Positions 1 to 54,149 of a stretch of DNA of 64,000 bases are shown piece after piece. The DNA comes from an uncultured Chloroflexia bacterium (GTDB lineage: Bacteria > Chloroflexota > Dehalococcoidia > UBA2979). The notes beneath the pieces are model-generated. The model was not told where the DNA came from, made no database searches, and saw only the letters and a list, made by a program, of their open reading frames with translations. The stretch is taken from contig CAVSIV010000001.1 in NCBI GenBank assembly GCA_963728205.1, positions 960,001 through 1,024,000 of the forward strand. Reading direction: 5' to 3'. Position 1 is the first letter of the stretch. Every line of letters starts with the position of its first letter. Position numbers and translations under genes: made by a program.

Positions 1-1
1 C

Positions 2-985
2 GTGCGGCGCAGCGACGTCGTGATCGAGAGCTTCGCGCCGGGGCGCCTGGCGGAGCTGGGCTTCGGCTACGACGCGCTCGACGCGCGCCGCCGCGGCGTC
101 ATCCTCTGCTCGATCACGCCGCACGGGCAGAGCGGCCCGCTGGCCGGCGTGCCGGGCAACGACCTCACCGCGTTCGCGCGCTCCGGCTGGGCGTCGATCA
201 ACGGCGATGCCGCGCGCGAGCCGCTGAACGGGAGCGCGTTCCAGGCGTCGTACCAGGCCGCGCTTGCGGCGTACGGCGCCGTGCTCGCGGCGCTGTTCCA
301 CCGCGACACGCACCCCGGCGAGGGCCAGCACGTCGACGTCTCCGAGGTCGAGGTCTGCGCGTCGACGTTCGCGCCGGCGCTGCTGCGCGGGCAGTACCTC
401 GGCGAGGCGATGGGCCGCAAGCACGGCACCGACATCACCACCGGCCCCGTCCCCGTCGCCGACGGCCACTTCGCGCTCACGATCAGCCGCGCGCACTTCT
501 GGCGCGACGCGATGAACCTGCTCGGGCTCGAAGACCTCGCGGAGGACGAGCGCTACGAGGCGAGCTGGTACCGGCAGCAGCACAAGGAGGAGTACGTCTC
601 GCGCGTGCAGGAGAAGATGGCGGGCTGGCAGAAGATGGAGCTGTTCGACGAGCTCGCCGTGCGGCGCGTCGTCGCCGGGCCGGTGCTGACGATGGACGAG
701 CTCCGCGCGAACCCGCACCTGCGCGAGCGCGAGTTCTGGGTGCACGCCGCGGACGACCCCGACGGCCCGGAGTATCCCGGCGCGCCCGTGCGCCTGTCCG
801 CCACGCCATGGTCGCTCGCCCACCGCGCGCCGGAGCCGGGCGAAGACACGCTCCCCGTCCTGCGCGAGGTCGGCGGCGTCACCGAGGACCAGCTGCCGGG
901 GCTGCTCGAGTCGGGCGTGATCGGCACCGTCGCGTCGCCGGCGGACGAGCCGGCCGGCGCGCCCACCGGCGACGCGCGGCGATGA
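2..985 (+). CDS. CaiB/BaiF family III CoA-transferase subunit (5' truncated by window edge; lacks catalytic Asp)
   Basis: DVVIESFAPG, CSITPHGQSGP and GEGQHVDVS motifs. The catalytic-Asp region reads QASYQA. Stop overlaps next ATG (ATGA). Confidence 0.9.
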   Translation: MRRSDVVIESFAPGRLAELGFGYDALDARRRGVILCSITPHGQSGPLAGVPGNDLTAFARSGWASINGDAAREPLNGSAFQASYQAALAAYGAVLAALFHRDTHPGEGQHVDVSEVEVCASTFAPALLRGQYLGEAMGRKHGTDITTGPVPVADGHFALTISRAHFWRDAMNLLGLEDLAEDERYEASWYRQQHKEEYVSRVQEKMAGWQKMELFDELAVRRVVAGPVLTMDELRANPHLREREFWVHAADDPDGPEYPGAPVRLSATPWSLAHRAPEPGEDTLPVLREVGGVTEDQLPGLLESGVIGTVASPADEPAGAPTGDARR

Positions 986-2271
986 GCGACGTGCCGCCGC
1001 GCGCCGGGGAGGGGCCGCTCGCCGGGCTGCGCGGCATCGTGCTGACGCAGGCGTGGGCCGGCTCGTACTGCACCGAGCTGCTCGGGATGCTCGGCGCCGA
1101 CATCATCCAGCTCGAGGTGCGCAAGCGGCTCGACTCCTGGCGCGGGTCCTACGACACGCCGATGCCGGCGACGCTCCGCGCCGTCCCCACCGCGCGGCAC
1201 GCGTGGAACTGCAACCCGCTCTACAACTCCGTGAACCTCGCGAAGCGGACGGCCACGCTCGACCTCGGCACGCCCGAGGGCATCGACGTCTTCCGCCGCT
1301 TGCTGCCGCACGCCGACGTCGTCGCCGAGAACTTCTCGCCGCGCGTGCTCGGGAACCTCGGCATCGACTACGACGCCATGCGCGCGATCAAGCCCGACGT
1401 CATCCTGTGCAGCCTGTCGGCGTACGGCCACACGGGGCCGTGGGCGAACGTGCCGGGGATCGGCGGGACCATCGAGCCGACGTCGGGGCAGTCGGCGCTG
1501 CTGGGCTATCGCGACGGCCCGCCGCTCAACTCCGGGCAGATGTACCCCGACGCGGTCGCCGGGCTCACCGCCTTCGGCGCGATGCTCACGGCACTGCACC
1601 ACCGGCACCGCACCGGCGAGGGCCAGTACATCGACCTCTCGATGCAGGAGGCGAACCTCGCGGTGGTCGGCGACGCGGCGCTGGAGCAGGGAGTCACCGG
1701 ACGCCAGCGTCCGCGTCTCGGGAACCGCCACATGACCTTCGCGCCGCACGGGATCTACGCGTGCCGCGGAAACGCGACCGGGGAGGAACGCTGGATCGCG
1801 CTCGCCGCGCAGGACGAGGCGCAGTGGGCGGCGCTGTGCGACGTCGCCGGCCACGCGGAGTGGCGCGGCGACGCGCGCTTCGTCGACAACGCCGCGCGCA
1901 AGGCGCACGAGGACGCGCTCGACGCGATCCTCGGCGCGTGGGCCGCGACGGAGGACCGCGACGACCTGGCCGCGCGGCTGTCGGCCGCGGGCGTGATCGC
2001 CGCGCCGGTGCTCGACGGCCGCGAGGTCGCCGCGGACCCACAGCTGCGCGAACGCGGCTTCCTCGTCGAGCTCGACCACCCCGAGGTGGGCCGCTTCCCA
2101 CAGTCCGGCGTGCCGATGCGCTTCTCGCGCACGCCGGCGCGCGTCACGCGCCCGGCGCCGCTCCAGGGCGAGCACAACTACGAGGTGTTCGCGGAGCTGC
2201 TGGGGATGAGCGAGGCGGAGTACCAGGCGCTCGCGGCGCTGGGCGTGACGGGCGTCGGCCCGCCGCCGTAG
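982..2271 (+). CDS. CaiB/BaiF family III CoA-transferase subunit (catalytic Asp present)
   Basis: PLAGLR, LGADIIQLE, DVVAENFSP, YPDAVAG, GEGQYIDLSM. ATG 982 is coupled to the upstream TGA. Confidence 0.92.
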   Translation: MSDVPPRAGEGPLAGLRGIVLTQAWAGSYCTELLGMLGADIIQLEVRKRLDSWRGSYDTPMPATLRAVPTARHAWNCNPLYNSVNLAKRTATLDLGTPEGIDVFRRLLPHADVVAENFSPRVLGNLGIDYDAMRAIKPDVILCSLSAYGHTGPWANVPGIGGTIEPTSGQSALLGYRDGPPLNSGQMYPDAVAGLTAFGAMLTALHHRHRTGEGQYIDLSMQEANLAVVGDAALEQGVTGRQRPRLGNRHMTFAPHGIYACRGNATGEERWIALAAQDEAQWAALCDVAGHAEWRGDARFVDNAARKAHEDALDAILGAWAATEDRDDLAARLSAAGVIAAPVLDGREVAADPQLRERGFLVELDHPEVGRFPQSGVPMRFSRTPARVTRPAPLQGEHNYEVFAELLGMSEAEYQALAALGVTGVGPPP

Positions 2272-2380
2272 CCGATTCCGGCAGCGGCCGCTCGCCCACG
2301 GGGGCCCGCCGCTCGCCCAGATGCGGGGCGAACCGCTATCGTCGCGCCGTCCCGAGTGCCCCACCCGAAAGACGGCCCGC

Positions 2381-3229
2381 ATGACCGACTACACCCAGAT
2401 CCGCTACGAGACCGTGGGGCGCGTCGCGCGCGTCGTCCTCAACCGGCCGCGCTACCGCAACGCCCAGAGCCGGTTGCTGCTCGAGGAGATGGACGATGCC
2501 TTCGCGCGCGCGTCCGAGGACCTCGGCGTCGGCGTGATCGTGCTCTCCGGCGAGGGCGACCACTTCTCGGCCGGCCACGACCTCGGCACGCCCGACGAGG
2601 TGGCCGACCGCGAGGCGCGCCCGGCGGAGGAAGGGGTGCGCGGGCGCTACGCTCGCTCGTGGGAGAACAACGTCGCGAAGTCGCTGCGCTGGCGGAACGT
2701 GCCGAAGCCGACGATCGCGATGGTGCAGGGGTACTGCATCTTCGCCGGCTGGATCATCGCGTCGGCGATGGACCTGGTGTTCGCGGCCGACGACGCGATG
2801 TTCCTCGGCACGAACTTCCAGTACTTCACGATCCCGTGGGACATCCCCCCGCGGCAGGCGAAGGAGATCCTCTTCGAGAGCCGCTTCATCTCCGCGGCCG
2901 AGGCGCACGAGCTGGGCCTCGTGAACCGGGTGGTGCCGCGCGACCGGCTCGAGGCGGAGACGATGGAGTACGCGGCCCGCGTCGCGGAGAACGACCCGTT
3001 CCAGCTGCGCATGATCAAGCTCGCGATGAACCAGGCGCAGGACGCGCAGGGGTTCACGCAGCACATCAACGGCGCGTTCGCGCTGCACCTGCTCTCGTCG
3101 CAGGGCGAGGCCGACCCGGCGTTCGCGCTGTCGAAGCCCGAGGGCCGGCGCCGCCCGATGGTGCAGCGTGCGATGGAGAACTTCGAGCGCCGACAGCAGG
3201 AGCAGGCCGGCGAAGGCGGCCCCGCATGA
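2381..3229 (+). CDS. Enoyl-CoA hydratase/isomerase (crotonase) superfamily protein
   Basis: LNRPRYRNA, FSAGHDL, PKPTIAMVQG, AEAHELGLVNRVV motifs; ATG at 2381. Confidence 0.9.
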   Translation: MTDYTQIRYETVGRVARVVLNRPRYRNAQSRLLLEEMDDAFARASEDLGVGVIVLSGEGDHFSAGHDLGTPDEVADREARPAEEGVRGRYARSWENNVAKSLRWRNVPKPTIAMVQGYCIFAGWIIASAMDLVFAADDAMFLGTNFQYFTIPWDIPPRQAKEILFESRFISAAEAHELGLVNRVVPRDRLEAETMEYAARVAENDPFQLRMIKLAMNQAQDAQGFTQHINGAFALHLLSSQGEADPAFALSKPEGRRRPMVQRAMENFERRQQEQAGEGGPA

Positions 3230-4740
3230 CCGCGCCGCGCGACGCCTACGACGTCATCGTGATCGGCGCCGGCAACGCCGCGCTCTGCGCCGCGCTGGCC
3301 GCCCGCGAGGCCGGCGCCCGCGTCGCGGTGCTGGAGAAGGCCACGCGCGAGGAGCGCGGCGGCAACACCTTCTTCACCGGCGGCGGCTTCCGCTTCCCGT
3401 ACAACGGCATCGACGACATTCGCGCCCTGATCCCGGACCTCTCGGAAGAGGAGGTCGCGGGGATCGACGTCGGCTCCTATCCGGCGCCGGCGATGCGTTC
3501 GGACCTGATGCGCGTCACGGAGGGGCTGGCCGACCCCGGCCTCGTCGATCGGCTCGTCGGTGACGCGTACCCGACGGTCCAGTGGATGCGCGAGCGGCTC
3601 GGCATGCGCTGGGTGCTCATGTACGGCCGGCAGGCGTACCGCGTCGGCGACAAGCTCCAGTTCTGGGGCGGAATGATCACCGAGGCGGTCGGGGGCGGCG
3701 AGGGCCTCTCCGACATGCTCTTCCGCGCGGCGGAGGAGCAGGGGGTCGACGTTCGGTACGGGACGAAGGCAGTGTCGCTGATCACCGACCGGCGCGCCGC
3801 GGTGACGGGCCTGCGCGTGCGCGACGACGACGGCTTCGGAGAGCTCCAGGCGGGTGCGGTGGTGATCGCGGCGGGCGGCTTCGAGGCGAACACCGCGATG
3901 CGGACGCAGTATCTCGGAGCCGGGTGGGAGTTCGCCAAGGTCCGTGGTACAAGACATAACACTGGCGATGGCATCAAGATGGCGCTTGAGATAGGCGCCC
4001 AGCCGTACGGCCACTGGTCGAGTGCACACGCCGTGGCCTGGGACTTCAACGCGCCGCCCACCGGCAACCGGCGCATCGGTGATCTCTACCAGAAGCACTC
4101 GTATCCGCTCGGCCTGATCGTGAACATCCGCGGCGAGCGGTTCGTCGACGAGGGCGCGGACCTGCGGAACTACACGTACGCGAAGTACGGCCGAGAGATC
4201 CTGCGTCAGCCGCAGAGCATCGCGTTCCAGCTGTTCGACCAGCAGACGGTAGCGATGCTGCGCGACGAGTACCGCATCCGCGAGGCGACGAAAGCTGAGG
4301 CGGGGACCGTCGGTGAGCTCGCCGACGCGCTGGGCATCGACCGGACGGGGCTCGAGCAGACCGTGGCGGCGTACAACGCCGCGTGCCGGCCGGGGGCGTT
4401 CAACCCGGCCGAGCGCGACGGCCTGCACACGGAGGGAATCGCTCCGCCGAAATCGAACTGGGCGCTGCCGCTGAACCAGCCGCCGTTCGTGGGATACGCG
4501 GTGACGTGCGGCGTGACGTTCACGTTCGGTGGGCTGCGTATCGTGCCGCAGACGGCGCAGGTGCTGGACACCGAGGACCGGCCGATCGCGGGGCTGTACG
4601 CGGCGGGCGAGCTGGTGGGCGGGCTCTTCTTCCACAACTACGCCGGCGGGACCGGCCTGATGGCCGGCTCCGTGTTCGGCCGGCTTGCCGGCGCGTCGGC
4701 CGCGGAGGCCGCGCTGAGGGCGGGGACGCGCACGGTGTAG
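3226..4740 (+). CDS. tcuA: FAD-dependent oxidoreductase, tricarballylate dehydrogenase TcuA-like
   Basis: DVIVIGAGNAA FAD motif, GGNT, AAGGFEAN, VTFTFGGL, GLYAAGELVGGLFFHNY; ATGA overlap with upstream gene. Confidence 0.8.
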   Translation: MTAPRDAYDVIVIGAGNAALCAALAAREAGARVAVLEKATREERGGNTFFTGGGFRFPYNGIDDIRALIPDLSEEEVAGIDVGSYPAPAMRSDLMRVTEGLADPGLVDRLVGDAYPTVQWMRERLGMRWVLMYGRQAYRVGDKLQFWGGMITEAVGGGEGLSDMLFRAAEEQGVDVRYGTKAVSLITDRRAAVTGLRVRDDDGFGELQAGAVVIAAGGFEANTAMRTQYLGAGWEFAKVRGTRHNTGDGIKMALEIGAQPYGHWSSAHAVAWDFNAPPTGNRRIGDLYQKHSYPLGLIVNIRGERFVDEGADLRNYTYAKYGREILRQPQSIAFQLFDQQTVAMLRDEYRIREATKAEAGTVGELADALGIDRTGLEQTVAAYNAACRPGAFNPAERDGLHTEGIAPPKSNWALPLNQPPFVGYAVTCGVTFTFGGLRIVPQTAQVLDTEDRPIAGLYAAGELVGGLFFHNYAGGTGLMAGSVFGRLAGASAAEAALRAGTRTV

Positions 4741-4779
4741 GCGCGTGGAGGGCGAGGTGCCCGTCCTCCCCGGCTCCCG

Positions 4780-4861
4780 GCAAGCGGCGGCAGATACGCC
4801 GCCGATTCTGCGCGGCCTCGACGGCCGCGCCGGTATCGGCGGCGTATCCGCCGCCGCTTGC
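4780..4861. repeat. Palindromic intergenic repeat, family A (REP-like)
   Basis: gcaagcggcggcagatacgccgccgat...atcggcggcgtatccgccgccgcttgc, a near-perfect inverted repeat between convergent genes. Confidence 0.85.
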
Positions 4862-4891
4862 GACGGGGCCACGGGGCCGGCGACAGCACAC

Positions 4892-4915
4892 GGCAGGCCT
4901 GAAGCCTGCCGCGCG
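4892..4915 (-). repeat. Short hairpin, family C (GGCAGGC-n5-GCCTGCC), possible terminator/REP
   Basis: ggcaggcctgaagcctgccgcgc immediately after the minus-strand stop at 4917; near-identical copy at 43948. Confidence 0.6.
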
Positions 4916-4916
4916 C

Positions 4917-7366
4917 CTACGCCGTCACCAGGTCGCTCGACGTGACGCCGCCCGCCACCATCGCCGACACCTCGGCGTCGCTGTAGCCGGCCAGCGTCGT
5001 CAGCACCTCGGCGCTGTGCTGCCCGAACTGCGGAGCCGCACGCACGGCCGTGATCGGGCGGCGGCGCATGCGCCAGGTCGGCGCCGTTGTGAGCTGGCGG
5101 CCGGCGTCGGGGTGGTCGTAGGCGATGAACGCGTCGCGAACGAGCAGGTGCGCGTCCGTCGTCGCGAGCAGCGGCGTGAGCACCGGCGAGGCGGCCACGC
5201 CGGCGGCCTGCAGCGCGTCGGCCGCGTCGTCGGGGTCGCGCGTCGACGTCCACTCCGCGATCACCGCGTCGATCGCGTCCTGCGCCGCGCGGCGGCCATC
5301 GGCCGTCGCGTACGCCGGGTCGTCCAGCCGCGCGTCGCGCGATCACGCCGCGCAGCGCGCGCCACGCGTCGTCGGAGTCGACCGCGATCGCCACCCAGCG
5401 ACTCGTGAACTCGCGCAGCACGTTGCCCAGCGGGCCGACGGACTGCCGCACCGGGCCGTCGGCGGCGGGGTAGACGTTGTGCGGCGCGAAGAGCGCGTCG
5501 CGGCTGCCGATGCGCACGGGGAGCGGCACGCCGAGCGCCTGCGCGATCACGTACTCGCCGACGAGCCCGATGATGCCGTCGCGCTGGGGGACCATCGCGT
5601 AGACCCCGTGGCCGGTGCGCTCGCGCGCGACCAGCGCCACGCCGACCGCCGCGGCCGCCGTGACGCCCGCGACCGGGTCGCCGTACGAGATGCCGCTGCG
5701 GTGTGGCGGGCCGCCGGGGTAGCCCTGCAGCGCCACGAGGCCGCCCATCTGCTCGATCGACGGCCCGAAGCCGACACGCGCCGCGTCGTTGCCGCGGTGG
5801 CCGAACCCCGGCATCGACACGCAGATCAGCCGCGGGTTGAGGGCGCGCAGGTCCTCGTATCCGAGCCCCAGCCGCTCGGCGACGCCGCTGCTCCAGTTCT
5901 CGACGAACACGTCGGCGTCTGCGAGCAGGCGCCTGATCGCCTCGATGCCCTCGGGTCGCTGAAGGTCGAGCGTGATGCCGCGCTTGTTGCGGTTGTACTC
6001 GTTGAAGTAGGCGCTGAGGTTGATGTCGGGCGCGCTCGTCGCGCCGGCCATCGTGCGGATGCCGTCGGGGAACGCGGGTCCCTCGATCTTGATCACATCG
6101 GCGCCCATGTCGCCGAGGAGGCGCGTCGCATAGGGACCCGCCCAGATCTGCGTGACGTCGATCACACGGATGCCGTCGAAGGGGAGCGCAGGCGCCGCTG
6201 TGCCGGCCGGGGCCGCCGGCGTGGCGACGGGGGGCGCGCCCGCCGCCACGAGCTCCGCGCGCATGGCCTCGGTGTGCTCGCCGACGAGCGGGCCGCGCGC
6301 GTGCTCGCCGCGATCGCCGTCGAACTCGATCGGCCCCGCGGGCAGCGGGTGGCGGCCGAGCACGGGGTGATCGACCCAGCGCCAGAAGCCCGTCCCGACG
6401 AGCGCCGGCCATTCGAGCAACTCGCGCGGCGTCGGGATCAACGTCATCGGCGCGCGGAACTTCGCGGCCTCCGCGAAGATCTCGTGCGCCGCGCGCGTGC
6501 TCGCCCATTCCGGCAGCAGCACCGACATCAGCTCGTTGCCCTCGACCGACCAGCCGTTCGCGACGGCGGGGTCGTCCTTGAACTCCGGGTGGCCGATGCA
6601 CGTCGTAGACGGCGCCCGTCTGCCGCGGCATCGCGGCGACGCCCACGTAGCCGTCGGCGCAGGCGTGGATGCCCCACTGCGCGAACGTCTGATTGCCGTT
6701 CGGGCCGGCCTCGCTGCCGCGGGTCAGCGCGTTCGGCCCGGCGCCCTCCAGCGTCGCGACCTGCACCTCCTGGATCGAGATGTCGAGCACGTCGCCGATG
6801 CCGGTGCGACGCGCGGCGAACAGCGCGGCCGCGGTGGCGCCGAACGCGTGCAGCCCGGCCTGGTAGTAGGCCTGGTGGCCGGCGGTCTTCAGCGGCGGCA
6901 GGTCCGGGTCGCCGCACATGCCCATCTGTCCGCCCGCCGCGGCGGCGGTGAGCGCGGTCGCGCGCCACTGCGTGTGCGGGCCGGTCTGGCCGAACGGGGT
7001 GATCCGGCAGACGACCAGCGACGCGCGCGCGTCGGCGAGCGCGTCGAGGTCGATCCCGCGCGCGGCGAGCGCGCCCGGCGCGTGCGAGTCAATCACGATC
7101 TCCGCGCGCGCGAGCAGCGCGTCGAGCGTCGCGCGATCCGCGGGGTCGTCGAGGTCGAGGGCGACGCTGCGCTTGCCGGCGTGCAGGTAGGCGGCGAGCA
7201 CGCCGGCGTCGGGGCCGTCGCCCGCGTGCGGCGGGAGGTGGCGGATGGGGTGCCCGCCCGGCGGCTCGACGACGACGACATCGGCGCCGTACGCGCGCAG
7301 GAGGCGGCCGGCGAACGCGCCGGCGACGTCGGTGCTGAGCTCCACGACGCGGCAGCCATCGAGCAT
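4917..7366 (-). CDS. Double-domain (fused) CaiB/BaiF CoA-transferase, two apparent +1 frameshifts (~6601, ~5339)
   Basis: MLDGCRVVEL...YGADVVVVE first domain; PFDGIRVIDVTQIWAGP...YGDPVAG second domain. Deleting one base at each site gives a continuous ORF of about 815 aa. Confidence 0.85.
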
Positions 7367-7395
7367 GGGTGGGTCCTTTCGTAGTGGTATCCGCG

Positions 7396-7502
7396 ACGCC
7401 GCCACCGCGGCGGCAGATACGCCGCCGACAGCACGCGGACGCAAGTCCGCGGCTGCCGCCGCGGGTCTGTCGGCGGCATGTCTGCCGCCGCTGTGGCGGC
7501 GT
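7396..7502. repeat. Palindromic intergenic repeat, family A
   Basis: gcggcggcagatacgccgccgacag...ctgtcggcggcatgtctgccgccgc arms with inner cgcggacgcaagtccgcg hairpin, shared with the 54 kb copy. Confidence 0.85.
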
Positions 7503-7671
7503 GTCCGCCGCGGCGCGGTGGTGTCCGCCGCAGCGCGGTCGTGGCACGCGAGCGCGTCCGGCAGGGCGCGCTCCCGCCGCGCGCCGCATGGTAGCAACCC
7601 GCCCGCCGGACACGAACCAGCCCCCGGCGTGCCGAGGGCTGGTAGGCGATCGCGTCGCGTCGCGCCGAGGG

Positions 7672-8214
7672 CTACGCCCGGGCGAAGCCGTAGTCGAGCG
7701 TCGACGACAGGTCGAAGAACCGCTGCAGGCTCGGGTTGTAGCGGAAGAACATGTCCGCCTTGAACCCGTCGTCCAGGTAGTTCTTGTGGATGGGGTCGTC
7801 GAAGCGCAGGTCGAGCGTGTTCAGCGTCCACTCCTGCGTGGCGTGGCCGTTCTTCTTGATGTCCTGGAGCATCGACTTCCAGTGCTCGGGGGAGAGCTCC
7901 ACGACGAAGTCCGCGTCGCGGAGGCGGTTCTCCGATACTTCGCGCACGTCGTGGATGTCGAGCACGTCGAAGTTCGCCTCGATCAGCTTCTCGCCGATCT
8001 TGAAGACGACGACCGCGTTGAGCCGGCCGAACTTGCGGTAGCCCTCGTCCTGCTTCGCGACGTCGCCGAGCTTCTGGAACCATTCAACGGACGGGAAGTT
8101 GAGCTTCTTCGTCGCGGCGGCCGGCTTCTTTGCCGCGGCGCGGGTCGTCGTCTTCGCCGCCGCCTTCGCGGGCGCCTTGCGGCTGGTGGTCGTGCTCGTG
8201 CTCTTCGTCGGCAT
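7672..8214 (-). CDS. SCP2 sterol/lipid-binding-like protein with Lys/Ala-rich N-terminal tail
   Basis: FPSVEWF start of domain and ADFVVELSPEHWKSML resemble SCP2-like folds; strongly biased codons. The fold call is by eye. Confidence 0.6.
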   Translation of the reverse strand: MPTKSTSTTTSRKAPAKAAAKTTTRAAAKKPAAATKKLNFPSVEWFQKLGDVAKQDEGYRKFGRLNAVVVFKIGEKLIEANFDVLDIHDVREVSENRLRDADFVVELSPEHWKSMLQDIKKNGHATQEWTLNTLDLRFDDPIHKNYLDDGFKADMFFRYNPSLQRFFDLSSTLDYGFARA

Positions 8215-8247
8215 CAGTGCCCCTTTACGGTTGCGTGCTGCAGCAGG

Positions 8248-8550
8248 TTAGAAGTCGATCGGCTTCCCGGGGTCCTTCGCCGCGTCGAACGGCGTCATCT
8301 TGGCGAGGTGACGCATCGGCTCGGCCTCGGGGGTCTTCGCCATCTGGTCCTCGACCATGCGCTTGTACATGGGGTCGAGGGAGCGGATGGCGTCCAGCTC
8401 ATTGTGCGTGACCGCGAAGGCCGAGACCTTGCGGGCGATGTTGGACTTGCCGCAGAACTCGCACTTCGTGGGCTCCTCGCGGCGCGGGGGCCGGATCAGC
8501 ACCTCGAAGGTCGCCTTGCAGTCGGCGCACTGGTACGTGTGAAGCGGCAT
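8248..8550 (-). CDS. FmdB family zinc-ribbon protein
   Basis: MPLHTYQCADCKATFE...KCEFCG...RKVSAF signature. Confidence 0.88.
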   Translation of the reverse strand: MPLHTYQCADCKATFEVLIRPPRREEPTKCEFCGKSNIARKVSAFAVTHNELDAIRSLDPMYKRMVEDQMAKTPEAEPMRHLAKMTPFDAAKDPGKPIDF

Positions 8551-8576
8551 GTTCGATCCGATCTCGCCGTGGCGGG

Positions 8577-9656
8577 CTACGCCGCGGCGGTTTCACCTTC
8601 GGCCAGCAGCATCCGGAACGGCCGGATCAGCTGCTCGCCGCGCTCGAGGCCGACGGAGCGGCAGTGGCTGAGGTATGCGCGCATCCAGTCGCGCTGGAGG
8701 CGCCGGACGACCTGCATCCCTTCGTCCATGCCCTTCACGCCGCCGCCGAAGATGACGGCAAGCGCTTCCCAGAGCACGGGGTCGGCCGCGTCGCGGGCCT
8801 GCGCGGCCTCGACGTTCGTCAGCCAGATCGCGAAGCCGGCGCGCTGCTCGGGCCGAGCGGCGATGGCCGTGCGGATGTGATCCATGGCGTAGGCGAGGGT
8901 GCGCATGCGGTCCGGGATCATGCGCGTCGCCAGCACGCGGTCGGCCTCGGTCGGGCCGTACGCGGCGAGGTAGCGCAGGATCGCGGTCTGCAGCGAGCCG
9001 CGCAGGAACCAGAGGCCGAGCACGGTCTGCGACCAGCCGGCGTACGTCTCCATGATCGCGCGGTTCATGCGGCCGGGGCTCTCCAGCAGCATGCCGCCGC
9101 CGTTGACCATCGCGCGCTTGCGGTAGCCCTCGAAGAGCCGCGCCGCGTCGTACACGCCGGTCGAGAGGAAGAGCTTCACCTCGTGGTAGCCGGGGCTGAG
9201 GTTCTGCAGCCAGCCGGAGACGACCTCGGCCTCGATCGAGCCCTCCTGCGAGAGCTCGGTCGCGACCTGGCAGATCGCGATCTCGACGTCGTCGGGCAGG
9301 CCGTGCGCGGTCTCCCACGGGACGTCGGTCGCGGTCGACCAGCGGCGCGAGATGCCCTCCTCGTAGAGCTGGCCGGCGCAGTCGGCCCACTGCTCGTACT
9401 TCTCCTGGAGGTAGTAGCCGCCGATGGAGCCGGCGATGGGTGACGGGTAGGCGCCGCGCGGCCAGCGGTTGCGGTACTGGATGCGGTCGGGAATCTCGGA
9501 GTAGACGCCCACGTTGAGGGCGTCGATCGTGAGCCCGCCGCCGTGCTCGAAGTCGGGACGCGCGCGGATGCCCCAGCCGATGGTCTTGTCCATCCAGCTG
9601 AGGTCGGGCATCGGCGGCGCCTGCGGCGCACCATCCTGGGCGGTTGCCTGGACCAT
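8577..9656 (-). CDS. Ferritin-like protein, degenerate (beta-like) paralogue lacking iron ligands
   Basis: Aligns by eye with 9755..10891 (LYEE, DVPWE, LPDDVE, RKR..NGGG) but has DAARL and DRMRT where that protein has ExxH. RBS GGAGGGG before ATG 9656. Confidence 0.8.
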   Translation of the reverse strand: MVQATAQDGAPQAPPMPDLSWMDKTIGWGIRARPDFEHGGGLTIDALNVGVYSEIPDRIQYRNRWPRGAYPSPIAGSIGGYYLQEKYEQWADCAGQLYEEGISRRWSTATDVPWETAHGLPDDVEIAICQVATELSQEGSIEAEVVSGWLQNLSPGYHEVKLFLSTGVYDAARLFEGYRKRAMVNGGGMLLESPGRMNRAIMETYAGWSQTVLGLWFLRGSLQTAILRYLAAYGPTEADRVLATRMIPDRMRTLAYAMDHIRTAIAARPEQRAGFAIWLTNVEAAQARDAADPVLWEALAVIFGGGVKGMDEGMQVVRRLQRDWMRAYLSHCRSVGLERGEQLIRPFRMLLAEGETAAA

Positions 9657-9754
9657 TCGTGTCCCCTCCAGGGAGGGCCCCATCGTGGGGGCCACACACA
9701 GCGGACGCCGCCCCTCGCGTGGTGCGGGGGAGCGGCGTCCGAGCGGATCAGTGG

Positions 9755-10891
9755 TTACGCGGCGAGGTACTGCTGCAGCGCGGAGTTGGCGCGACCGTTC
9801 TCGAACCGGTCGCCGAGGCCGGCCACCTTCACGCGCTGGATGTACTCCTTGACCTGGCGCTGCCGCACCGCCGTGGCGATCTTCTCGCCCTCCGACATCG
9901 ACGCGGCGTCCGACCCGCCGCCGAGCAGGATCGCCAGCGCGGCGTTCGACGGCGTCCCGCGCGTCGCGGGGTTCTGCCCGCCGCTGCCGGCGACGAGGCC
10001 CATCTCGATCTCGTCGAGGTACGAGTGGATCTCCTCGCGGCGCTCCGGGTCCGTCTGCGCGAGGTACTGCAGGTGCATCACGCCGAAGGCGACGTGGCGC
10101 GACTCGTCCGACGCCGCGAGGCGGTAGATCGCCTTCTCCGCGTCGTTGTAGGACATGCGCTCGCCCATCCGGAAGATCGAGAGCACGAGACCCTCGCCGG
10201 AGATGTGCAGGCGGGCCGACATCTCCGTGAAGTCGCGGGCGGAGTCGATGGCGCCGCCGGCCAGCGCCGCGTTCGACGTCTGCATCAGCAGGCCGCCGCC
10301 GTTGGCGAAGGTGCGCTTGCGGAAGACGTCGAGGTGGCGCGCCTCGTCCATGATCTGCGAGATCAGGAACATGCGCGGCTCGTAGTAGTCCGGGCTCGTC
10401 TCCGAGATCCACTTGCCCGGGACGTCACCGGCGACGAACTCGACCTCGGTGAGGAACGTCGTGAGCTGGCACTCGGCGCGCTCGATGTCGTCGGGGAGCT
10501 CCTCGAGGGTCTCCCACGGGATGTCGACCGCGGACGACCACTGGCGCTGCACGGCCTCCTCGTAGAGCTGGGAGGCGTTGCGCAGCCAGATGTCCGACTT
10601 CGTGCGGACCGAGTAGTTGCCGACCTTCGGGGCGGTGGGGCGCACGAGCGAGCCGCGCGGGCGGCCCGTCATGTTGTCGCTCCAGTCCGGGATCTGGGCG
10701 TACGGGCCCTTGTCGATGTCCTGCAGGAGGACGCCCTCACCCTTCGCGCCGTCGGCGCGCAGCCCGAACGTCTCGCGGGCCGTCAGCCAGTCCAGCTTGT
10801 ACCCGCGCGAGCGCCCGTACTCGAGGAGCGACTCGTAAGCGGTCTTCTGAGATGTGGACTGTGACTGATCGGGCCGCGTCTCGGTCGCCAT
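9755..10891 (-). CDS. Ferritin-like diiron-carboxylate protein (alpha-like)
   Basis: Complete ligand pattern E(VE)...DEARH...GEG...DESRH; RBS AGGAGAG. Confidence 0.85.
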   Translation of the reverse strand: MATETRPDQSQSTSQKTAYESLLEYGRSRGYKLDWLTARETFGLRADGAKGEGVLLQDIDKGPYAQIPDWSDNMTGRPRGSLVRPTAPKVGNYSVRTKSDIWLRNASQLYEEAVQRQWSSAVDIPWETLEELPDDIERAECQLTTFLTEVEFVAGDVPGKWISETSPDYYEPRMFLISQIMDEARHLDVFRKRTFANGGGLLMQTSNAALAGGAIDSARDFTEMSARLHISGEGLVLSIFRMGERMSYNDAEKAIYRLAASDESRHVAFGVMHLQYLAQTDPERREEIHSYLDEIEMGLVAGSGGQNPATRGTPSNAALAILLGGGSDAASMSEGEKIATAVRQRQVKEYIQRVKVAGLGDRFENGRANSALQQYLAA

Positions 10892-11005
10892 ACGCTCTCC
10901 TGCTTTCGTGTCTGCGATGTTCGATCGGCTGCTGGTGCAGGGCCGCCGCTGAGGTCGCCGTCAGCGCGCGTACACCGTCAACGAACGTAGTCGTTCGAGG
11001 GCGTC

Positions 11006-11034
11006 AACATACAGTGTGTATGCAAGGCTGTCAA
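11006..11034 (-). promoter_or_regulatory. Sigma70 promoter of the ferritin-like operon with overlapping palindromic operator
   Basis: Minus strand TTGACA-N17-TATGTT with TG extension; CATACA-n3-TGTATG palindrome at 11008-11022. Confidence 0.75.
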
Positions 11035-11504
11035 CGAACACGTGCGTGGCCGGCGGGCGCCGCCAACAGGTTGGGACCGGCCGTCGCGCGGCACGTGGGG
11101 CGAGGGCGGTGGCAGGCATCGCGCGCGCCCGAGAGGCGGGTCGCGAGTCGCGCGAAGGCGGCCGGCGGCGACCACTGCGAGATGCGTACGACGGTGCCGC
11201 CGCGGTCCGGCGCGAGCGTGACCTCGACGATCGCGTCGCGCTCGTCGTCGCGGCTGCCGCCGCTCGTGGCGTGCCAGCGCACGCGGCGCGGAGCTTCGCG
11301 CTCGATCACCTCGCCGAGGCGCACGACACGCGGCTCCACGCCGGGGAAGCGAGCGGGGTCGGTGACGTAGTCGAAGACCTCCTCGGGTGGCGCGTCGACG
11401 CGCACCTCGACCTGCAGCTCCGGCACGTCGTCGACGGCGGTGCGTGGCGACTCGTCGCGCCGGTCGTCCGGGCCGGCGGGGGCGTCGTGCTCGTCGTGTG
11501 CCAT
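11031..11504 (-). CDS. SRPBCC/AHSA1 domain protein
   Basis: VEVRVDAPPEEVFDYVTDP...VEVTLAPDRGGTVVRI; ATGA overlap with ArsR. The C-terminus looks atypical. Confidence 0.7.
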   Translation of the reverse strand: MAHDEHDAPAGPDDRRDESPRTAVDDVPELQVEVRVDAPPEEVFDYVTDPARFPGVEPRVVRLGEVIEREAPRRVRWHATSGGSRDDERDAIVEVTLAPDRGGTVVRISQWSPPAAFARLATRLSGARDACHRPRPTCRATAGPNLLAAPAGHARVR

Positions 11505-11857
11505 CAGGCGTCTCCCTTCGCGGCGCCCGGTCCGCCGCCGCGCGCGGGTCGCGGCGGCGACGCCAGGTCGTCCTTCATGCGCGCCAGCGCGGCGCTCCAG
11601 AACCCCTCGACCTCGTCGCGCAGGCGGGCGAGGCCCTCCGGCGCGGCGTGGTACACGCGACGCCGCCCGTCGGGCGTCGCCGCCACGAGTCCGGCGTCGC
11701 GCAGCACGCGCAGGTGCTGCGACACCGCCGGCTGCGACAGCGCGACGCGCTCCACGATCTCGCCGACGGAGCGCTCGCGCTCGCAGAGCAGGCGATAGAT
11801 CGCGCGTCGGCTGGGGTCGCCCAGCGCGTCGAGCGGGTCGGTGGCGTCCTCGTGCAT
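11504..11857 (-). CDS. ArsR/SmtB family transcriptional regulator
   Basis: ALGDPSRRAI...SQPAVSQHLRVLRDAGLV...GRRRVY winged HTH. Confidence 0.92.
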   Translation of the reverse strand: MHEDATDPLDALGDPSRRAIYRLLCERERSVGEIVERVALSQPAVSQHLRVLRDAGLVAATPDGRRRVYHAAPEGLARLRDEVEGFWSAALARMKDDLASPPRPARGGGPGAAKGDA

Positions 11858-11877
11858 GCCGACATGATATCGCGCTA

Positions 11878-11891
11878 CACTTATATAAGTG
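11878..11891. promoter_or_regulatory. Palindromic operator, probably bound by ArsR
   Basis: Perfect 14-bp palindrome CACTTATATAAGTG between divergent arsR and clpP. Confidence 0.65.
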
Positions 11892-11927
11892 CACACGAAT
11901 GTGTAATGCAGGCGGAGGAGGCAGGCG

Positions 11928-12578
11928 ATGAACGACAGCTCGACGGGGCGGCCGCGGGCGGTGGTGCCGATGGTGGTGGAGGCCGGTCCGCGCGGCGAGC
12001 GCGCCTACGACATCTACTCGCTGTTGCTGAAGGAGCGCGTCGTCATCCTCGGCACCGAGGTGACGTCCGAGGTCGCGAACGCGATCGTCGCGCAGCTGCT
12101 CTACCTCGACCGCGAGGACGCGGACAAGGACGTCTCGCTCTACATCCACTCGCCGGGCGGCGAGGTATACGCGGGGCTGGCGATCATCGACACGATGCAA
12201 CTGATCCGCGCGGACGTCTCGACGATCGCGGTCGGTTTCACGGCGTCGATGGGCACCGCCGTGCTGGCGGCCGGCGCGCGCGGCAAGCGGTTCGCGCTGC
12301 CGAGCGCGACGATCCACTACCACCCGGCGCTCGGCGGCGCGCAGGGGGGCGCGCGCGACGTCGAGATCCGCGCGCAGGAGCTGCTGCGGCTGAACCGCCG
12401 CCTGCGCGAGCTGCTCGCCGAGCGCACCGGCCGCCCGTTCGACGAGATCGCGCGCGACTTCGACCGCGATCACTTCATGGATGCGTACGAGGCGAAGGAG
12501 TACGGGCTCGTGGACGCGGTGCTCGAGCAGACGACGGTCGAGAGCCGGCGCACGGCCGGCTTCCAGCGGGCCGGGTGA
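11928..12578 (+). CDS. clpP: ATP-dependent Clp protease proteolytic subunit
   Basis: [22 protein letters not shown] (Ser), HYHP (His), DRD (Asp); RBS GGAGGAGG. Confidence 0.95.
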
Positions 12579-12706
12579 GAAGTCCACTTCGAGCGGCGCC
12601 GGGCCACGGCGCTGAGGCGCGATTCGGCGATTGCTCGGCGCCTCCTCAGCGCCTTCACCAGGCGCCGCTCGAAGCGCGCTCGGTCGTCGCGCAGCCGCGG
12701 CGGGCG

Positions 12707-13366
12707 CTAGCGGTTCGGGCCGCGTGACCGCGGGCTGCGTCCGCGGTCCGCGCGGCGGCCGGTCTGTCGCCGCGGCGGCGCGTCGGGCAGCGACGGGGCG
12801 AACCCGGGGTGGCGCTCCGCGAACTCGTCGGCCGTCATCCCGAAGCGGACCTCGTCCCAGCGCCGCCCGGCCGCGAAGATCGCGCTGCGCAGCCGACCCT
12901 CCTCGACGAACCCTAGCGCGCGGTGGAACGCGATCGAGCGCTCGTTGAAGGCGTACACGCCGCACTCCGCCTTCGCGTAGCCGAGCTCGCCGAAGTAGTA
13001 GCGCAGCAGCAACTGGATGGCCTCGCGGCCGTAGCCGTGCCGCCAGTGCTCGCGACCGAGCGCCAGGCCGAACTGGAAGCGCCGGTTCCGACGGTCGGCG
13101 CCGTGGACGGAGATCGAGCCCAGCACGGCGTCGTCCTCGGAGCGCGCGATGCAGAGGAACGCGTCGTCGTCGTTCTCATGGCGCTCCCGGGCGCGCTCCT
13201 CGGCCCACCGGCGTGCGGCCTCTCGCGACTGGGGGGAGTTGACGCGATGCCCGAGGCGCTCGACCTCGGAGTCGCGCGCGATCGCGTAGAACGTCTCCCA
13301 GTCCTCGGGTTCGATGCCGCGCAGGTGGACGCGCTCGCCCTGCCAGATGTCGTGTGTTTCGGGCAT
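12707..13366 (-). CDS. GNAT acetyltransferase, RimJ/RimL family
   Basis: GERVHLR, HWRHGYGREA, NERSIAFHRALGFVEEGRLR. Confidence 0.88.
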   Translation of the reverse strand: MPETHDIWQGERVHLRGIEPEDWETFYAIARDSEVERLGHRVNSPQSREAARRWAEERARERHENDDDAFLCIARSEDDAVLGSISVHGADRRNRRFQFGLALGREHWRHGYGREAIQLLLRYYFGELGYAKAECGVYAFNERSIAFHRALGFVEEGRLRSAIFAAGRRWDEVRFGMTADEFAERHPGFAPSLPDAPPRRQTGRRADRGRSPRSRGPNR

Positions 13367-13512
13367 GCGCCGGAGTGTAGCCGGGGTGGGCGGGGTCCCT
13401 CACGGATCTGCGCCGCCGACCGCGGGCGCGACGGCCTGCACGGGCGCCGCGCACCGCTGCGCGACACCCACGCCTGGCCCGGGGCTCCCCGGAGTGCGCG
13501 CGGCCGAGCAAC

Positions 13513-14142
13513 CTAGCGCGTGGCGCCCGTGCGCGCCTCGAGCAGCTCGCCGGCCAGCACCCCGACGATCCAGGACTCGGCCCGGTCGAAGGTCCAGCCG
13601 AACTCGCCGGTGAGCGACGCGAAGACGGACGGCATGGTCAGCGTGGCGACGGCGGCGGTCGCCTCCTCCGCGGGGACTCCTCCCCGCAACCCGCCCAGCC
13701 GGCCGAGGTGCTCAACGGTGGCGGCGCAACCCGCGCGGTGGCGCTTCATGCCTGCGGCGAACGCCTCCGTCATGTCGGACTCGACGCCGGCGGCGGACTG
13801 GAGTGCCGCGAGGATGTCTCCGCAGCGCTCGTTGACCTGTCGCGCGATGTGGACCTGGAGGGCGAGCACCTGGCGGGGATCATTGGCGGCACTCAGGGTG
13901 GCCGCGAGGGCCGGGATCTCGGCCTCTTCGTCGATCCGTTCGACGAGGAGCCTCAGCAGTTGCGGCTTCGGTCCGACGCTCGTGTAGACGGTGGGCAGGG
14001 CGACGCCGGCAGCCTCCGCGACCTCCGCCACGGAGGTCGCACCGTAGCCGCGCTCGGTGAAGAGGCGACGAGCCGCGTCGAGGATCGCGCGGCGCGTCTC
14101 GAGCGCCTGGTGCTGACGACGGCCGGGGCGTCTTGACGTCAT
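13513..14142 (-). CDS. TetR/AcrR family regulator
   Basis: TRRAILDAARRLF..RGYGATSVAEVAEAAGVALPTVY HTH. Confidence 0.92.
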   Translation of the reverse strand: MTSRRPGRRQHQALETRRAILDAARRLFTERGYGATSVAEVAEAAGVALPTVYTSVGPKPQLLRLLVERIDEEAEIPALAATLSAANDPRQVLALQVHIARQVNERCGDILAALQSAAGVESDMTEAFAAGMKRHRAGCAATVEHLGRLGGLRGGVPAEEATAAVATLTMPSVFASLTGEFGWTFDRAESWIVGVLAGELLEARTGATR

Positions 14143-14164
14143 GTCATATCCGATGTCTAATCAC

Positions 14165-14199
14165 GATATGATGTATCTAACTAGTAGATACGCCATATC
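14165..14199. promoter_or_regulatory. TetR operator (imperfect 15-bp inverted repeat)
   Basis: gatatgatgtatcta-actag-tagatacgccatatc (13/15 match), AT-rich, between divergent genes. Confidence 0.8.
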
Positions 14200-14215
14200 A
14201 TATCAGGAGGACGGC

Positions 14216-14914
14216 ATGGCAACCATCGGCGTGGGCGCGGCGGAGTCGAGCACCGGCAGGATCAGGTGGAGTTCCACGCGGCTGGCCGGGGCGGGCGGTC
14301 TTGTCTTCCTGGCCCTGATCACGTTCCAGAACATCATGCGAGCGATCACCGGGCCGGCCCTCGGAGCATCGCCGGACGTGGTGATTCGGTTCCTGCGCGA
14401 CGACGGGTGGACGATTCACGTGCTCGCCGTGACCTACATCGTGGGCTTCGTCCCGCTGCTGGCCTTCGCGAGCGGACTCGCGCACGAGGCAAGTCGCGTG
14501 GAGCCACGAGCACGTGGTTGGGCGGCGATCGGCGTGCTCGGCACGATGGCGATCGCGGTGTTCTTCGCGCTGATCACCGTGCTGCAGACGGCACTGCTGG
14601 CGTCGGTGGACGCGCTCGCCGGGAATGCGGCCCTGACGCAGACGGTGTGGGCGCTCCACGACGGCATCTTCACCATCAACCTCCTCGCGGTGGCGACGGC
14701 GATGCTCGGGCTCGGGGTCGCCGCGCGGATGGCACGGCTCGTTCCCGGCTGGATGGGCGTGCTGTCCTGCGTCGGCGCGGCGCTCATGACCGCGGGCGCG
14801 CTGCCGATGGTGGCGGAGGTCGAGGGTTCGCACCTGCTGGCGGTCTCGTTGGCCGGCTACCTGTGCTGGCTGCTGCTGCTGCTGGTGGCGGGAACCCGGC
14901 TGTTGCGAGAGTAG
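14216..14914 (+). CDS. Multi-pass membrane protein (DUF4386-like)
   Basis: About 6 hydrophobic segments, LVPGWMG motif; RBS AGGAGG before ATG 14216. Confidence 0.7.
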   Translation: MATIGVGAAESSTGRIRWSSTRLAGAGGLVFLALITFQNIMRAITGPALGASPDVVIRFLRDDGWTIHVLAVTYIVGFVPLLAFASGLAHEASRVEPRARGWAAIGVLGTMAIAVFFALITVLQTALLASVDALAGNAALTQTVWALHDGIFTINLLAVATAMLGLGVAARMARLVPGWMGVLSCVGAALMTAGALPMVAEVEGSHLLAVSLAGYLCWLLLLLVAGTRLLRE

Positions 14915-53688: not shown

Positions 53689-54045
53689 CGCGCGCCTCAG
53701 AATCCGGCCGGTGCCGCGACGTGCGCGGCCGCGGCGGCGCGCGGCCGCCGCGCGCGGGGATGCGTGGAGACGAACGACCGTGCGGCCGCGGCGGCTGTGC
53801 AACGCTGGGTTCCCGGCGCCGGGGCGGCGCTCTGCGCGCGCCTGGCTGCTGCGACCACCTGGGTGACTCGCGGCGTTTCCGGTGCCCGACGTCAGGGCTG
53901 CTGAGCGTCGTGGTGCGGAACGCTTACGTGCACGTGATTGTCTCGCACGGCGGCCCTGATGGTAAGAGCCATGACGATTATTTCATGTTTCCCGCGCACG
54001 TCCGCGCGGCGCGTTTAGGCACGCCGCGTACAGCGGCCGCCTCTC

Positions 54046-54149
54046 GCCGGCCAAAGCGGCGGCAGACATGCCGCCGACAGGACGCGGACGCAGTCCGCGG
54101 CTGGCGCTGCGCTGCTGTCGGCGGCATCTCTGCCGCCGCTGTGGCCGGC
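54046..54149. repeat. Palindromic intergenic repeat, family A
   Basis: agcggcggcagacatgccgccgacag...ctgtcggcggcatctctgccgccgct; inner cgcggacgcagtccgcgg as in the 7.4 kb copy. Confidence 0.85.

Follow-up and report, generated by a model that had tools for sequence, protein, structure and literature searches.

A conserved four-gene cassette of Dehalococcoidia encodes a predicted R2-like dimetal protein, its ligand-less paralogue, a zinc-ribbon protein and an SCP2-fold protein

We analyzed a 64,000-nucleotide stretch of DNA (the window; G+C content ~72%) that spans positions 960,001 to 1,024,000 of contig CAVSIV010000001.1 in assembly GCA_963728205.1, from an uncultured Chloroflexia bacterium (Dehalococcoidia; UBA2979), and that contains a cassette of four genes, which we call alpha, beta, ZnR (zinc ribbon) and g4 (SCP2-like). 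The original prediction, made from the letters of the window, had placed four co-oriented genes behind a promoter of the form TTGACA-N17-TATGTT, and both elements of that description were confirmed: all four open reading frames (ORFs) are present on the minus strand, and the promoter-like site lies upstream of alpha (Table 1). The codon-position GC content of the four ORFs is gene-like (0.94-0.97 at third positions), a purine-rich ribosome-binding site precedes each of the four starts, and the intergenic gaps (alpha/beta, beta/ZnR and ZnR/g4) are 98, 26 and 33 nt. Beta starts at the ATG at position 9656, which has the ribosome-binding site GGAGGGG and produces the MVQ start common to its orthologues.

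Table 1. Features of the cassette and of the neighboring coenzyme A (CoA)-related genes, in window coordinates.
Feature	Position	Strand	Description
alpha	9755-10891	minus	378 aa; predicted ferritin/R2-fold protein, complete dimetal ligand set
beta	8577-9656	minus	359 aa; alpha paralogue, all metal ligands replaced
ZnR	8248-8550	minus	100 aa; FmdB-type Cys4 zinc ribbon
g4	7672-8214	minus	180 aa; predicted SCP2-fold protein
Promoter-like TTGACA-N17-TATGTT	11006-11034	minus	115 nt upstream of alpha start codon
GC-rich 12-bp hairpin	7616-7643	minus	29 nt after g4 stop codon
Double CoA-transferase	4917-7366	minus	fused double family-III (CaiB-type) CoA-transferase, fifth cassette gene; three reading frames
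CaiB, partial	2-985	plus	Pfam
CaiB	982-2271	plus	Pfam
Enoyl-CoA hydratase (ECH)	2321-3229	plus	Pfam
TcuA-like flavin adenine dinucleotide flavoprotein	3226-4740	plus	NCBIfam NF006130, 551.8 bits vs cut-off 369

The promoter-like site is unique between positions 7200 and 11300, where shuffled sequences lead one to expect 0.2 such sites. Downstream of g4, the RNA fold of positions 7590-7675 has a predicted energy of -53 kcal/mol (z -3.74), and none of 200 shuffled sequences was as stable; the hairpin has no T-run and was not called by a consensus terminator scan, and it probably forms the end of the four-gene transcript. The short gaps, the single promoter-like site and the hairpin together make the four genes look like one transcription unit. 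A search of positions 7300-11200 against Rfam gave no match at E ≤ 0.1. Among sequencing runs searched for the DNA, none of RNA was listed, and the six DNA runs listed contain just 5-7% of the sampled words.

Three direct 10-mer repeats (GTTCGTTGAC / GTATGTTGAC / GTTCGTTGAC) are present on the minus strand at 10977-11039 with a spacing of 26-27 nt, and they may be candidate operator repeats for a regulator. The promoter-like site overlaps two of the three, so its hexamers may be part of a repeated operator-like motif. Immediately 5' of the cassette, at 11031-11857 on the minus strand, lie genes for an ArsR-family regulator and an SRPBCC/AHSA1-like protein, and the stop codon of the second of these falls within the promoter-like site; the pair is not kept beside the cassette in the other loci that we read.

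Alpha contains an apparently intact dimetal site. The full diiron ligand set proposed in the original prediction was found at all six residues, namely E151 (the second E of EVE), E183 and H186 (DEARH), E233 (GEG), and E263 and H266 (DESRH), and the same EEHEEH set is present in 30/30 cassette alphas. The residue four positions after H186, which we take to be the site of the radical tyrosine in the R2 protein of class Ia ribonucleotide reductase (RNR), is Phe in all 30. With an R2 fold in its structure model and Glu4His2 dimetal ligands, alpha has the features of R2lox proteins (the R2-like ligand-binding oxidases). No Pfam or NCBIfam model matched alpha above its cut-off, however: the best matches below cut-off in Pfam were DUF455 (E 0.038) and AurF (PF11583; E 0.24, 11 bits with a cut-off of 29.6), and the NCBIfam R2lox models NF006200, NF006202 and NF006198 scored 34.2, 17.8 and 11 bits with cut-offs of 194, 315 and 274, respectively. 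Ribonuc_red_sm (PF00268) gave no match at E ≤ 1, Phenol_Hydrox (PF02332) gave no match in Pfam, and alpha does not fall within the PaaA/PaaC family as represented by PF05138.

To place alpha among solved proteins we used an AlphaFold model built from an alignment of 49 relatives (pLDDT 87.3). Foldseek returned R2, R2lox, VlmB and PaaA chains only, with E values from 3e-4 to 2e-3. When the model was compared exhaustively with solved chains, the VlmB homologue of K. setae (6d9f) ranked highest, at 23.3 (root-mean-square deviation 2.5 Å over 253 residues, 20% identity), followed by RNR R2 (6y2n, 21.1) and R2lox (4hr0, 20.9), then by the monooxygenase hydroxylases ToMO, MMOH, phenol hydroxylase and T4MO (17.8-18.7), PaaC (15.5), BoxB (15.4) and AurF (14.1). 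The profile of the alpha alignment matched VlmB (6d9f/8wvr) at E 1.9e-12 and the R2lox of G. kaustophilus at E ~2e-8, and the four ligand motifs all line up. The original prediction had proposed a separate class of oxygenase distinct from PaaABCDE, BoxB and MmoXY. The distinction from those three stands, as judged by Pfam and by their lower rank in fold comparisons, but the nearest relatives of alpha are of the VlmB, R2lox and RNR-R2 type, and we therefore regard it as an offshoot of the R2-like branch and not as a wholly separate class.

Relatives of alpha are numerous: at least 1840 of 8000 candidates scored had E ≤ 1e-3. Among the matches listed, identity to alpha is 66-100%, no Pfam domain is present, the proteins are named 'hypothetical' or 'ferritin-like domain-containing', and most derive from metagenome-assembled genomes of Chloroflexota/Dehalococcoidia. 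The 119 nearest database relatives listed are 66-91% identical; all are metagenome proteins, and their named sources are without exception Chloroflexi/Chloroflexota or Dehalococcoidia.

Some more distant relatives carry additional domains. In the wider alpha alignment, a TusA sulfurtransferase-like domain occurs in 7/49 sequences (best E 3.2e-7) and FrhB domains occur in one; another protein (P0236) joins an alpha-like domain that scores against AurF to a lycopene-cyclase-type piece, and in a beta-like protein (P0150) a SnoaL-like domain is found at the N terminus. These fusions may offer hints to the partners or substrates of distant branches.

The second gene encodes a degenerate version of the first, as had been predicted. 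BLASTP aligned alpha and beta over 329 columns with 29% identity and an E value of 5e-47, which places their paralogy far beyond chance, and the roughly 100-residue N-terminal extension of alpha is common to both proteins. At the six ligand columns beta has G, A, L, G, R and T, with DAARL and DRMRT in the places of the two ExxH motifs, and a carboxylate ligand is kept in 0/35 cassette beta orthologues. About 48 positions are nonetheless at least 90% conserved with the identical residue in both alpha and beta. No Pfam or NCBIfam model matched beta above cut-off, and the beta profile by itself found no solved relative below E 0.26.

Queried against a library of 50%-identity representatives, beta matched 421 clusters at E ≤ 1e-3. 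Our alignment of 68 sequences comprised alpha, beta, six close homologues of alpha and those 60 of the best 150 beta hits whose length is 320 aa or more; 30 of the 68 have all six ligands and 38 have an incomplete set. In a quick maximum-likelihood tree of 59 of these rows (nine with garbled motif columns or fusions were dropped), the main ligand-less beta clade (25 rows; support of 99 in the Shimodaira-Hasegawa-like approximate likelihood ratio test) and the clade of cassette alphas (10 rows; 98) are sister groups, with joint support of 99, and the tree requires at least four losses of the ligand set.

ZnR was correctly described as an FmdB protein with a CxxC..CxxC pattern: it passes both Pfam PF09723 (Zn_ribbon_8; 38.4 bits with a cut-off of 34.4, E 1.3e-9) and TIGR02605 (FmdB; 42 bits with a cut-off of 31.3, E 7.1e-11), and its four cysteines, C8, C11, C30 and C33, are kept across 36 aligned orthologues. 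The suggestion that it might be a rubredoxin-like electron carrier found no support. The rubredoxin family (PF00301) is not among the nine Pfam families listed for ZnR at E ≤ 1, and the most conserved part of the protein is its C-terminal tail of ~55 residues, which contains no cysteine and displays the motif R..DP.YK..V.D....TP..AEPMR.L...T.F....DPG.P..F in at least 90% of the 36 orthologues. A conserved, cysteine-free tail fits an adaptor better than an electron carrier. We also considered a link between ZnR and PaaD and rejected it, the sole match (E 0.051) being below threshold.

The fourth protein, g4, consists of a Lys/Ala/Thr-rich tail (residues 1-37) that is predicted to be disordered (pLDDT <50) and a folded domain (residues 38-180); its AlphaFold model has a pLDDT of 83 overall and of >90 over most of residues 40-180. 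Pfam, including SCP2 (PF02036), gave no match at E ≤ 1 for g4 and none for 50 aligned relatives, and the Atlas lead from g4 to SCP2 had a score of just 0.86. Foldseek with the model, by contrast, returned SCP2-type proteins throughout its first 15 rows, to E 3.2e-2. The best match in the PDB was 2cx7, an SCP2 of Thermus thermophilus (E 1.2e-4, template-modeling (TM) score 0.69 by target length), the top matches 2cx7 and 1wfr spanned E 1.2e-4 to 3.9e-4 and TM scores of 0.60-0.69 by target length, and the UbiJ-SCP2 structure 6h6o appeared at E 2e-2. Thus, as had been predicted, g4 is an SCP2-like protein, and its SCP2 fold is visible only from the structure model. The low-complexity tail resembles that of histone H1; it has variable lengths in some orthologues (L044, P0280 and L059) and is absent from most.

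The four genes form a conserved set. A scan for the g4 motif, with one genome per species, identified 39 loci, 36 of them in metagenome-assembled genomes of Chloroflexota/Dehalococcoidia, two in Entotheonella and one in Acidimicrobiia, and the order alpha-beta-ZnR-g4 is present in 31 of the 39. Four other loci (L046, L057, L070 and L080) are cut by a contig end, one (L082) has alpha and g4 only, followed by a 4Fe-4S ferredoxin gene, and the remaining three (L064, L066 and L067) are split between contigs, as described below. The hosts include many soil and marine Chloroflexota, among them SAR202-type marine genomes, and the cassette is retained in streamlined marine genomes of 1.3-1.6 Mb. Our literature search found no paper describing the cassette, although the supplementary gene-family tables of SAR202 studies, which lay outside that search, could mention its genes. 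The cassette is therefore real, conserved and so far unnamed.

By Pfam annotation, the operon in the window contains no reductase or ferredoxin gene, as originally noted, and positions 1-14900 contain no reductase or MmoB-like gene. To our knowledge, R2lox and AurF-type enzymes are likewise encoded without a reductase gene, so its absence is not unusual here. In two divergent versions of the cassette, L082 and L042, the 4Fe-4S ferredoxin genes that adjoin it fit a need for an electron donor.

The genes around the cassette point to CoA metabolism. Directly 3' of g4 and in the same direction, 18/39 loci have an intact ORF of 810-863 aa for a fused double CoA-transferase, so that the neighboring CoA-transferases to which the original prediction drew attention are indeed conserved. 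The DMSP (dimethylsulfoniopropionate) CoA-transferase/lyase DddD has the same two-unit architecture. DddD is the best hit of some CaiB-type proteins of SAR202 bacteria, according to Landry et al. (PMC5395668). In the window, the corresponding gene is broken. With the intact 821-aa L044 orthologue as the query, tblastn recovered aa 1-266 at 7366-6569, aa 256-687 at 6600-5341 and aa 681-821 at 5366-4938, each piece in a different frame and each with a Pfam CoA_transf_3 match. The frame shifts lie near 6569-6600 and 5341-5366, with no long homopolymer run at either, and the gene is either a pseudogene or the product of two assembly errors.

On the plus strand, convergent to the cassette, the window has a CaiB-CaiB-ECH-TcuA-like block that is also found beside the cassette in three other loci (L048, L056 and L059); across all 39 loci, a TcuA-like gene lies within 7 kb in nine and an ECH gene in 15. 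At other loci, the neighbors include thiolase-like proteins that have DUF35/ChsH2 OB-fold partners, as well as genes for a MaoC dehydratase and for enolase-superfamily proteins. The thiolase, DUF35 and MaoC neighbors fit what is known of SCP2 domains, which bind acyl-CoAs and occur fused to the thiolase and hydratase enzymes of branched-chain beta-oxidation (SCPx and MFE-2).

Just 5' of the start of the double CoA-transferase gene is a near-perfect palindrome (7396-7502) with 36-nt arms that are 92% complementary; the RNA fold of the surrounding region (7367-7520) has a predicted energy of -101 kcal/mol (z -6.2). The palindrome belongs to a repeat, ~90-100 nt in length, with copies of 87-93% identity in at least 40 places in the genome, including window positions 54045-54145 and a site ~20 nt after a solo alpha gene on contig 6. 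The repeat has no Rfam match and resembles intergenic repeats of the REP (repetitive extragenic palindromic) or MITE (miniature inverted-repeat transposable element) type.

One alternative idea is that alpha and beta, in the manner of R2, generate a radical or a high-valent oxidant by which a separate catalytic protein, such as the DddD-like double CoA-transferase, is activated, as R1 is by RNR R2. The combination of Glu as the first ligand and Phe four residues after the first His, found in 30/30 alphas, is also that of the class Ic (Mn/Fe) R2 from Chlamydia, and the double CoA-transferase has a fixed place in the gene order of the 18 loci that have it. That gene is absent from the other 21 of the 39 loci, however, and no conserved radical-transfer residues were identified. 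Moreover, the Ribonuc_red_sm model that gave no match with the window alpha touches only 3/49 sequences of the wider alignment, and the SCP2 partner suggests a small hydrophobic substrate. We regard this idea as the most improbable of those considered here.

The rank of VlmB raises a different possibility, namely that the cassette performs secondary-metabolite nitrogen chemistry (azoxy, nitro or N-N oxidation), as VlmB and AurF do. VlmB (6d9f/8wvr) is the top match of alpha by both profile and fold, the Pfam AurF model is touched by 6/49 sequences of the wider alpha alignment (E ≤ 0.01), and the nearest Atlas clusters, looked up with a stored homologue of alpha in place of the window protein, carry AurF on 50% and 12% of their members. 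In addition, two loci come from Entotheonella, a metabolite-rich genus. On the other hand, the conserved neighbors of the cassette are catabolic CoA enzymes, and homology to VlmB, although detected, is not accompanied by a biosynthetic gene among the annotated neighbors: the loci that we read contain no nonribosomal peptide synthetase, polyketide synthase, VlmO-like or hydroxylamine-forming genes, with no search having been aimed at VlmO specifically. Neither Pfam nor NCBIfam includes a model of the VlmB family. In AurF-type sites a third His precedes the second ExxH by four residues, a position at which alpha has Ala; the window alpha falls far below the AurF cut-off, and maintenance of the cassette in streamlined marine genomes also speaks against secondary metabolism. 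A dedicated role in nitrogen chemistry is, in our opinion, very unlikely.

An intact dimetal site, a dead paralogue, fixed ZnR and SCP2-fold partners and a CoA-related context lead us to infer a heteromeric oxidase or oxygenase. Specifically, we consider it somewhat probable that the four genes encode the parts of an uncharacterized O2-activating dimetal-carboxylate oxidase/oxygenase from the R2-like branch of the ferritin fold, and the composition of the cassette suggests that they would act as a heteromeric enzyme on a hydrophobic acid or CoA thioester. In such an enzyme, alpha would bind two metal ions (Fe/Fe or Mn/Fe), reduce O2 and carry out the hydroxylation, desaturation, epoxidation or heteroatom oxidation of an organic substrate bound to it. 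Beta would be a structural subunit that replaces the second protomer of the usual R2-type dimer, much as PaaC does for PaaA; g4 would hold a hydrophobic acyl or acyl-CoA substrate and present it to alpha; and ZnR would be an adaptor that docks via its conserved tail. The DddD-like double CoA-transferase and the other CaiB enzymes could supply, pass on or remove the CoA thioester, and electrons might come from a general cellular donor.

Whether beta is a partner of alpha bears directly on this proposal. Beta is single-copy in every genome checked, and it adjoins an alpha wherever the contig allows, with the exception of three marine genomes discussed below. In a sample of the phylum, the beta query had a match in 11/401 genomes, the window genome included, and all nine loci examined from six of these matching genomes contain an alpha-beta tandem. 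ZnR and g4 were both detected by tblastn in only two of these nine loci; in another there is a distant homologue of g4. Three of the sampled genomes (G372, G228 and G348; L037, L038, L039, L041 and L043) have alpha-beta pairs of a second type, in which beta is extended at the N terminus by ~50-70 residues that include a conserved 'RELGW(E/S)..(L/I)' motif, and neither ZnR nor g4 follows.

Several observations weigh against the heteromeric enzyme acting on a CoA thioester. The alpha-beta pairs of G372, G228 and G348 have no ZnR or g4 detectable by tblastn. In three low-GC marine genomes (L064, L066 and L067), beta, ZnR and g4 are together and an alpha of 69-70% identity is on another contig. 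The window genome has three alphas (100, 81 and 78% identity) and one beta and one g4, and its two solo alphas, both on contig 6 (188623-189756, L005; 1536663-1537790, L006), have intact ligands and unrelated neighbors. Extra alphas, one with an in-frame TAG, are present in 2/5 other genomes, each of the five having exactly one beta. A single beta beside three alphas in one genome makes it probable that alpha can function in the absence of beta as well; the heteromer could be one of several forms, and alpha may act as a homodimer. Furthermore, the link of the cassette to CoA is drawn entirely from gene neighborhood, the local pathway may be defective if the two frame shifts in the double CoA-transferase are not assembly errors, and VlmB oxidizes a hydrazine to an azoxy group on a non-CoA substrate, as reported in PMC11705231. 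Heteroatom oxidation is accordingly a possible reaction for alpha too.

In an alternative reading, alpha would be an R2lox/VlmB-like oxidase that suffices by itself as a homodimer, beta would be a pseudoenzyme with a separate role (such as a regulator, chaperone or ligand binder), and ZnR and g4 would be loosely associated helpers, with no defined heteromer. The two window-genome alphas that lack a cassette, the extra alphas elsewhere and the three split cassettes all favor it, as does the fact that alpha relatives far outnumber those of g4 (282 at the same threshold, E ≤ 1e-3); solved R2lox and RNR R2 proteins are, moreover, homodimers. Against it stand the strict single-copy state of beta and its position beside alpha, wherever the contigs allow, outside the three split genomes, and the ~48 positions that are the same in alpha and beta fit a retained fold with a shared interface, for which PaaA/PaaC and the alpha/beta subunits of multicomponent monooxygenases provide precedents. 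We therefore judge a purely homodimeric enzyme to be unlikely, though with less conviction than in the case of nitrogen chemistry, and continue to favor a heteromer built from alpha and beta.

Ferritin-fold dimetal enzymes catalyze some of the most difficult oxidations known in biology, and every branch characterized so far has contributed new chemistry, including the RNR radical, methane hydroxylation, aryl-CoA epoxidases and azoxy formation. The alpha branch has no family model or solved structure, though it is locked in gene order to an SCP2-fold protein, ZnR and CoA-transferases. According to one proposal, the many CoA-transferase paralogues of SAR202 bacteria channel recalcitrant dissolved organic matter into oxidation (PMC5395668), and a defined oxygenase partner for them would make that proposal testable. 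Likewise, R2lox has long been of unknown function, and a relative for which an obvious partner could deliver the substrate may help to clarify the role of the R2lox group.

The nearest characterized or solved relatives of alpha are VlmB and its 'Protein 60' homologue from Kitasatospora setae (PDB 8wvr and 6d9f). VlmB is encoded in an antibiotic gene cluster beside VlmO, and the accessible part of PMC11705231 mentions no degenerate twin, zinc-ribbon or SCP2 partner. The window alpha, unlike VlmB, has the ~100-residue N-terminal extension and conserved neighbors that metabolize CoA. R2lox is kin to alpha by descent, yet alpha scores only 34.2 bits against the nearest R2lox model, with its cut-off of 194, and R2lox, as far as we know, forms homodimers and has no partner of the beta, ZnR or SCP2 kind. 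The heterodimeric Mn/Fe hydroxylase AibH1H2 was considered and set aside; the word 'ferritin' does not occur in the available text of PMC10401708.

Multicomponent monooxygenases (MmoXYZ, ToMO and phenol hydroxylase) have alpha subunits of ~500 aa, whereas the cassette proteins are much smaller, include no PF02332 match, and are accompanied by no gene for a coupling protein or reductase; these enzymes also rank below R2-like proteins in the structural comparison. The presentation of a hydrophobic substrate by a lipid-binding protein has a precedent in COQ9, which serves the diiron hydroxylase COQ7, and in UbiJ, which plays a similar part in the Ubi complex and whose SCP2 domain is among the fold matches of g4, although alpha is unrelated to COQ7 at the Pfam level and no quinone-biosynthesis genes are near the cassette. 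The closest analogy in logic is PaaABCDE, which has a live/dead PaaA/PaaC pair, a zinc ribbon in PaaD and a CoA-thioester substrate. The cassette, too, combines a catalytic and a ligand-less ferritin-fold protein with small accessory proteins and a putative CoA thioester, and PaaAC with benzoyl-CoA (3pvr) is among the structure matches of alpha, although the cassette falls outside the PaaA/PaaC family. More speculatively, and with considerable doubt, the cassette may represent a multicomponent dimetal oxygenase of independent evolutionary origin that acts on hydrophobic carboxylic acids which are hard to degrade and are activated with CoA, composed of an R2lox/VlmB-like catalytic subunit, its dead twin, a zinc-ribbon clamp and a substrate-presenting SCP2 protein; if so, it would take its place next to PaaABCDE, BoxAB and the multicomponent monooxygenases, and aerobic Dehalococcoidia, SAR202-type marine lineages among them, would have a route into recalcitrant organic matter by way of an oxygenase.

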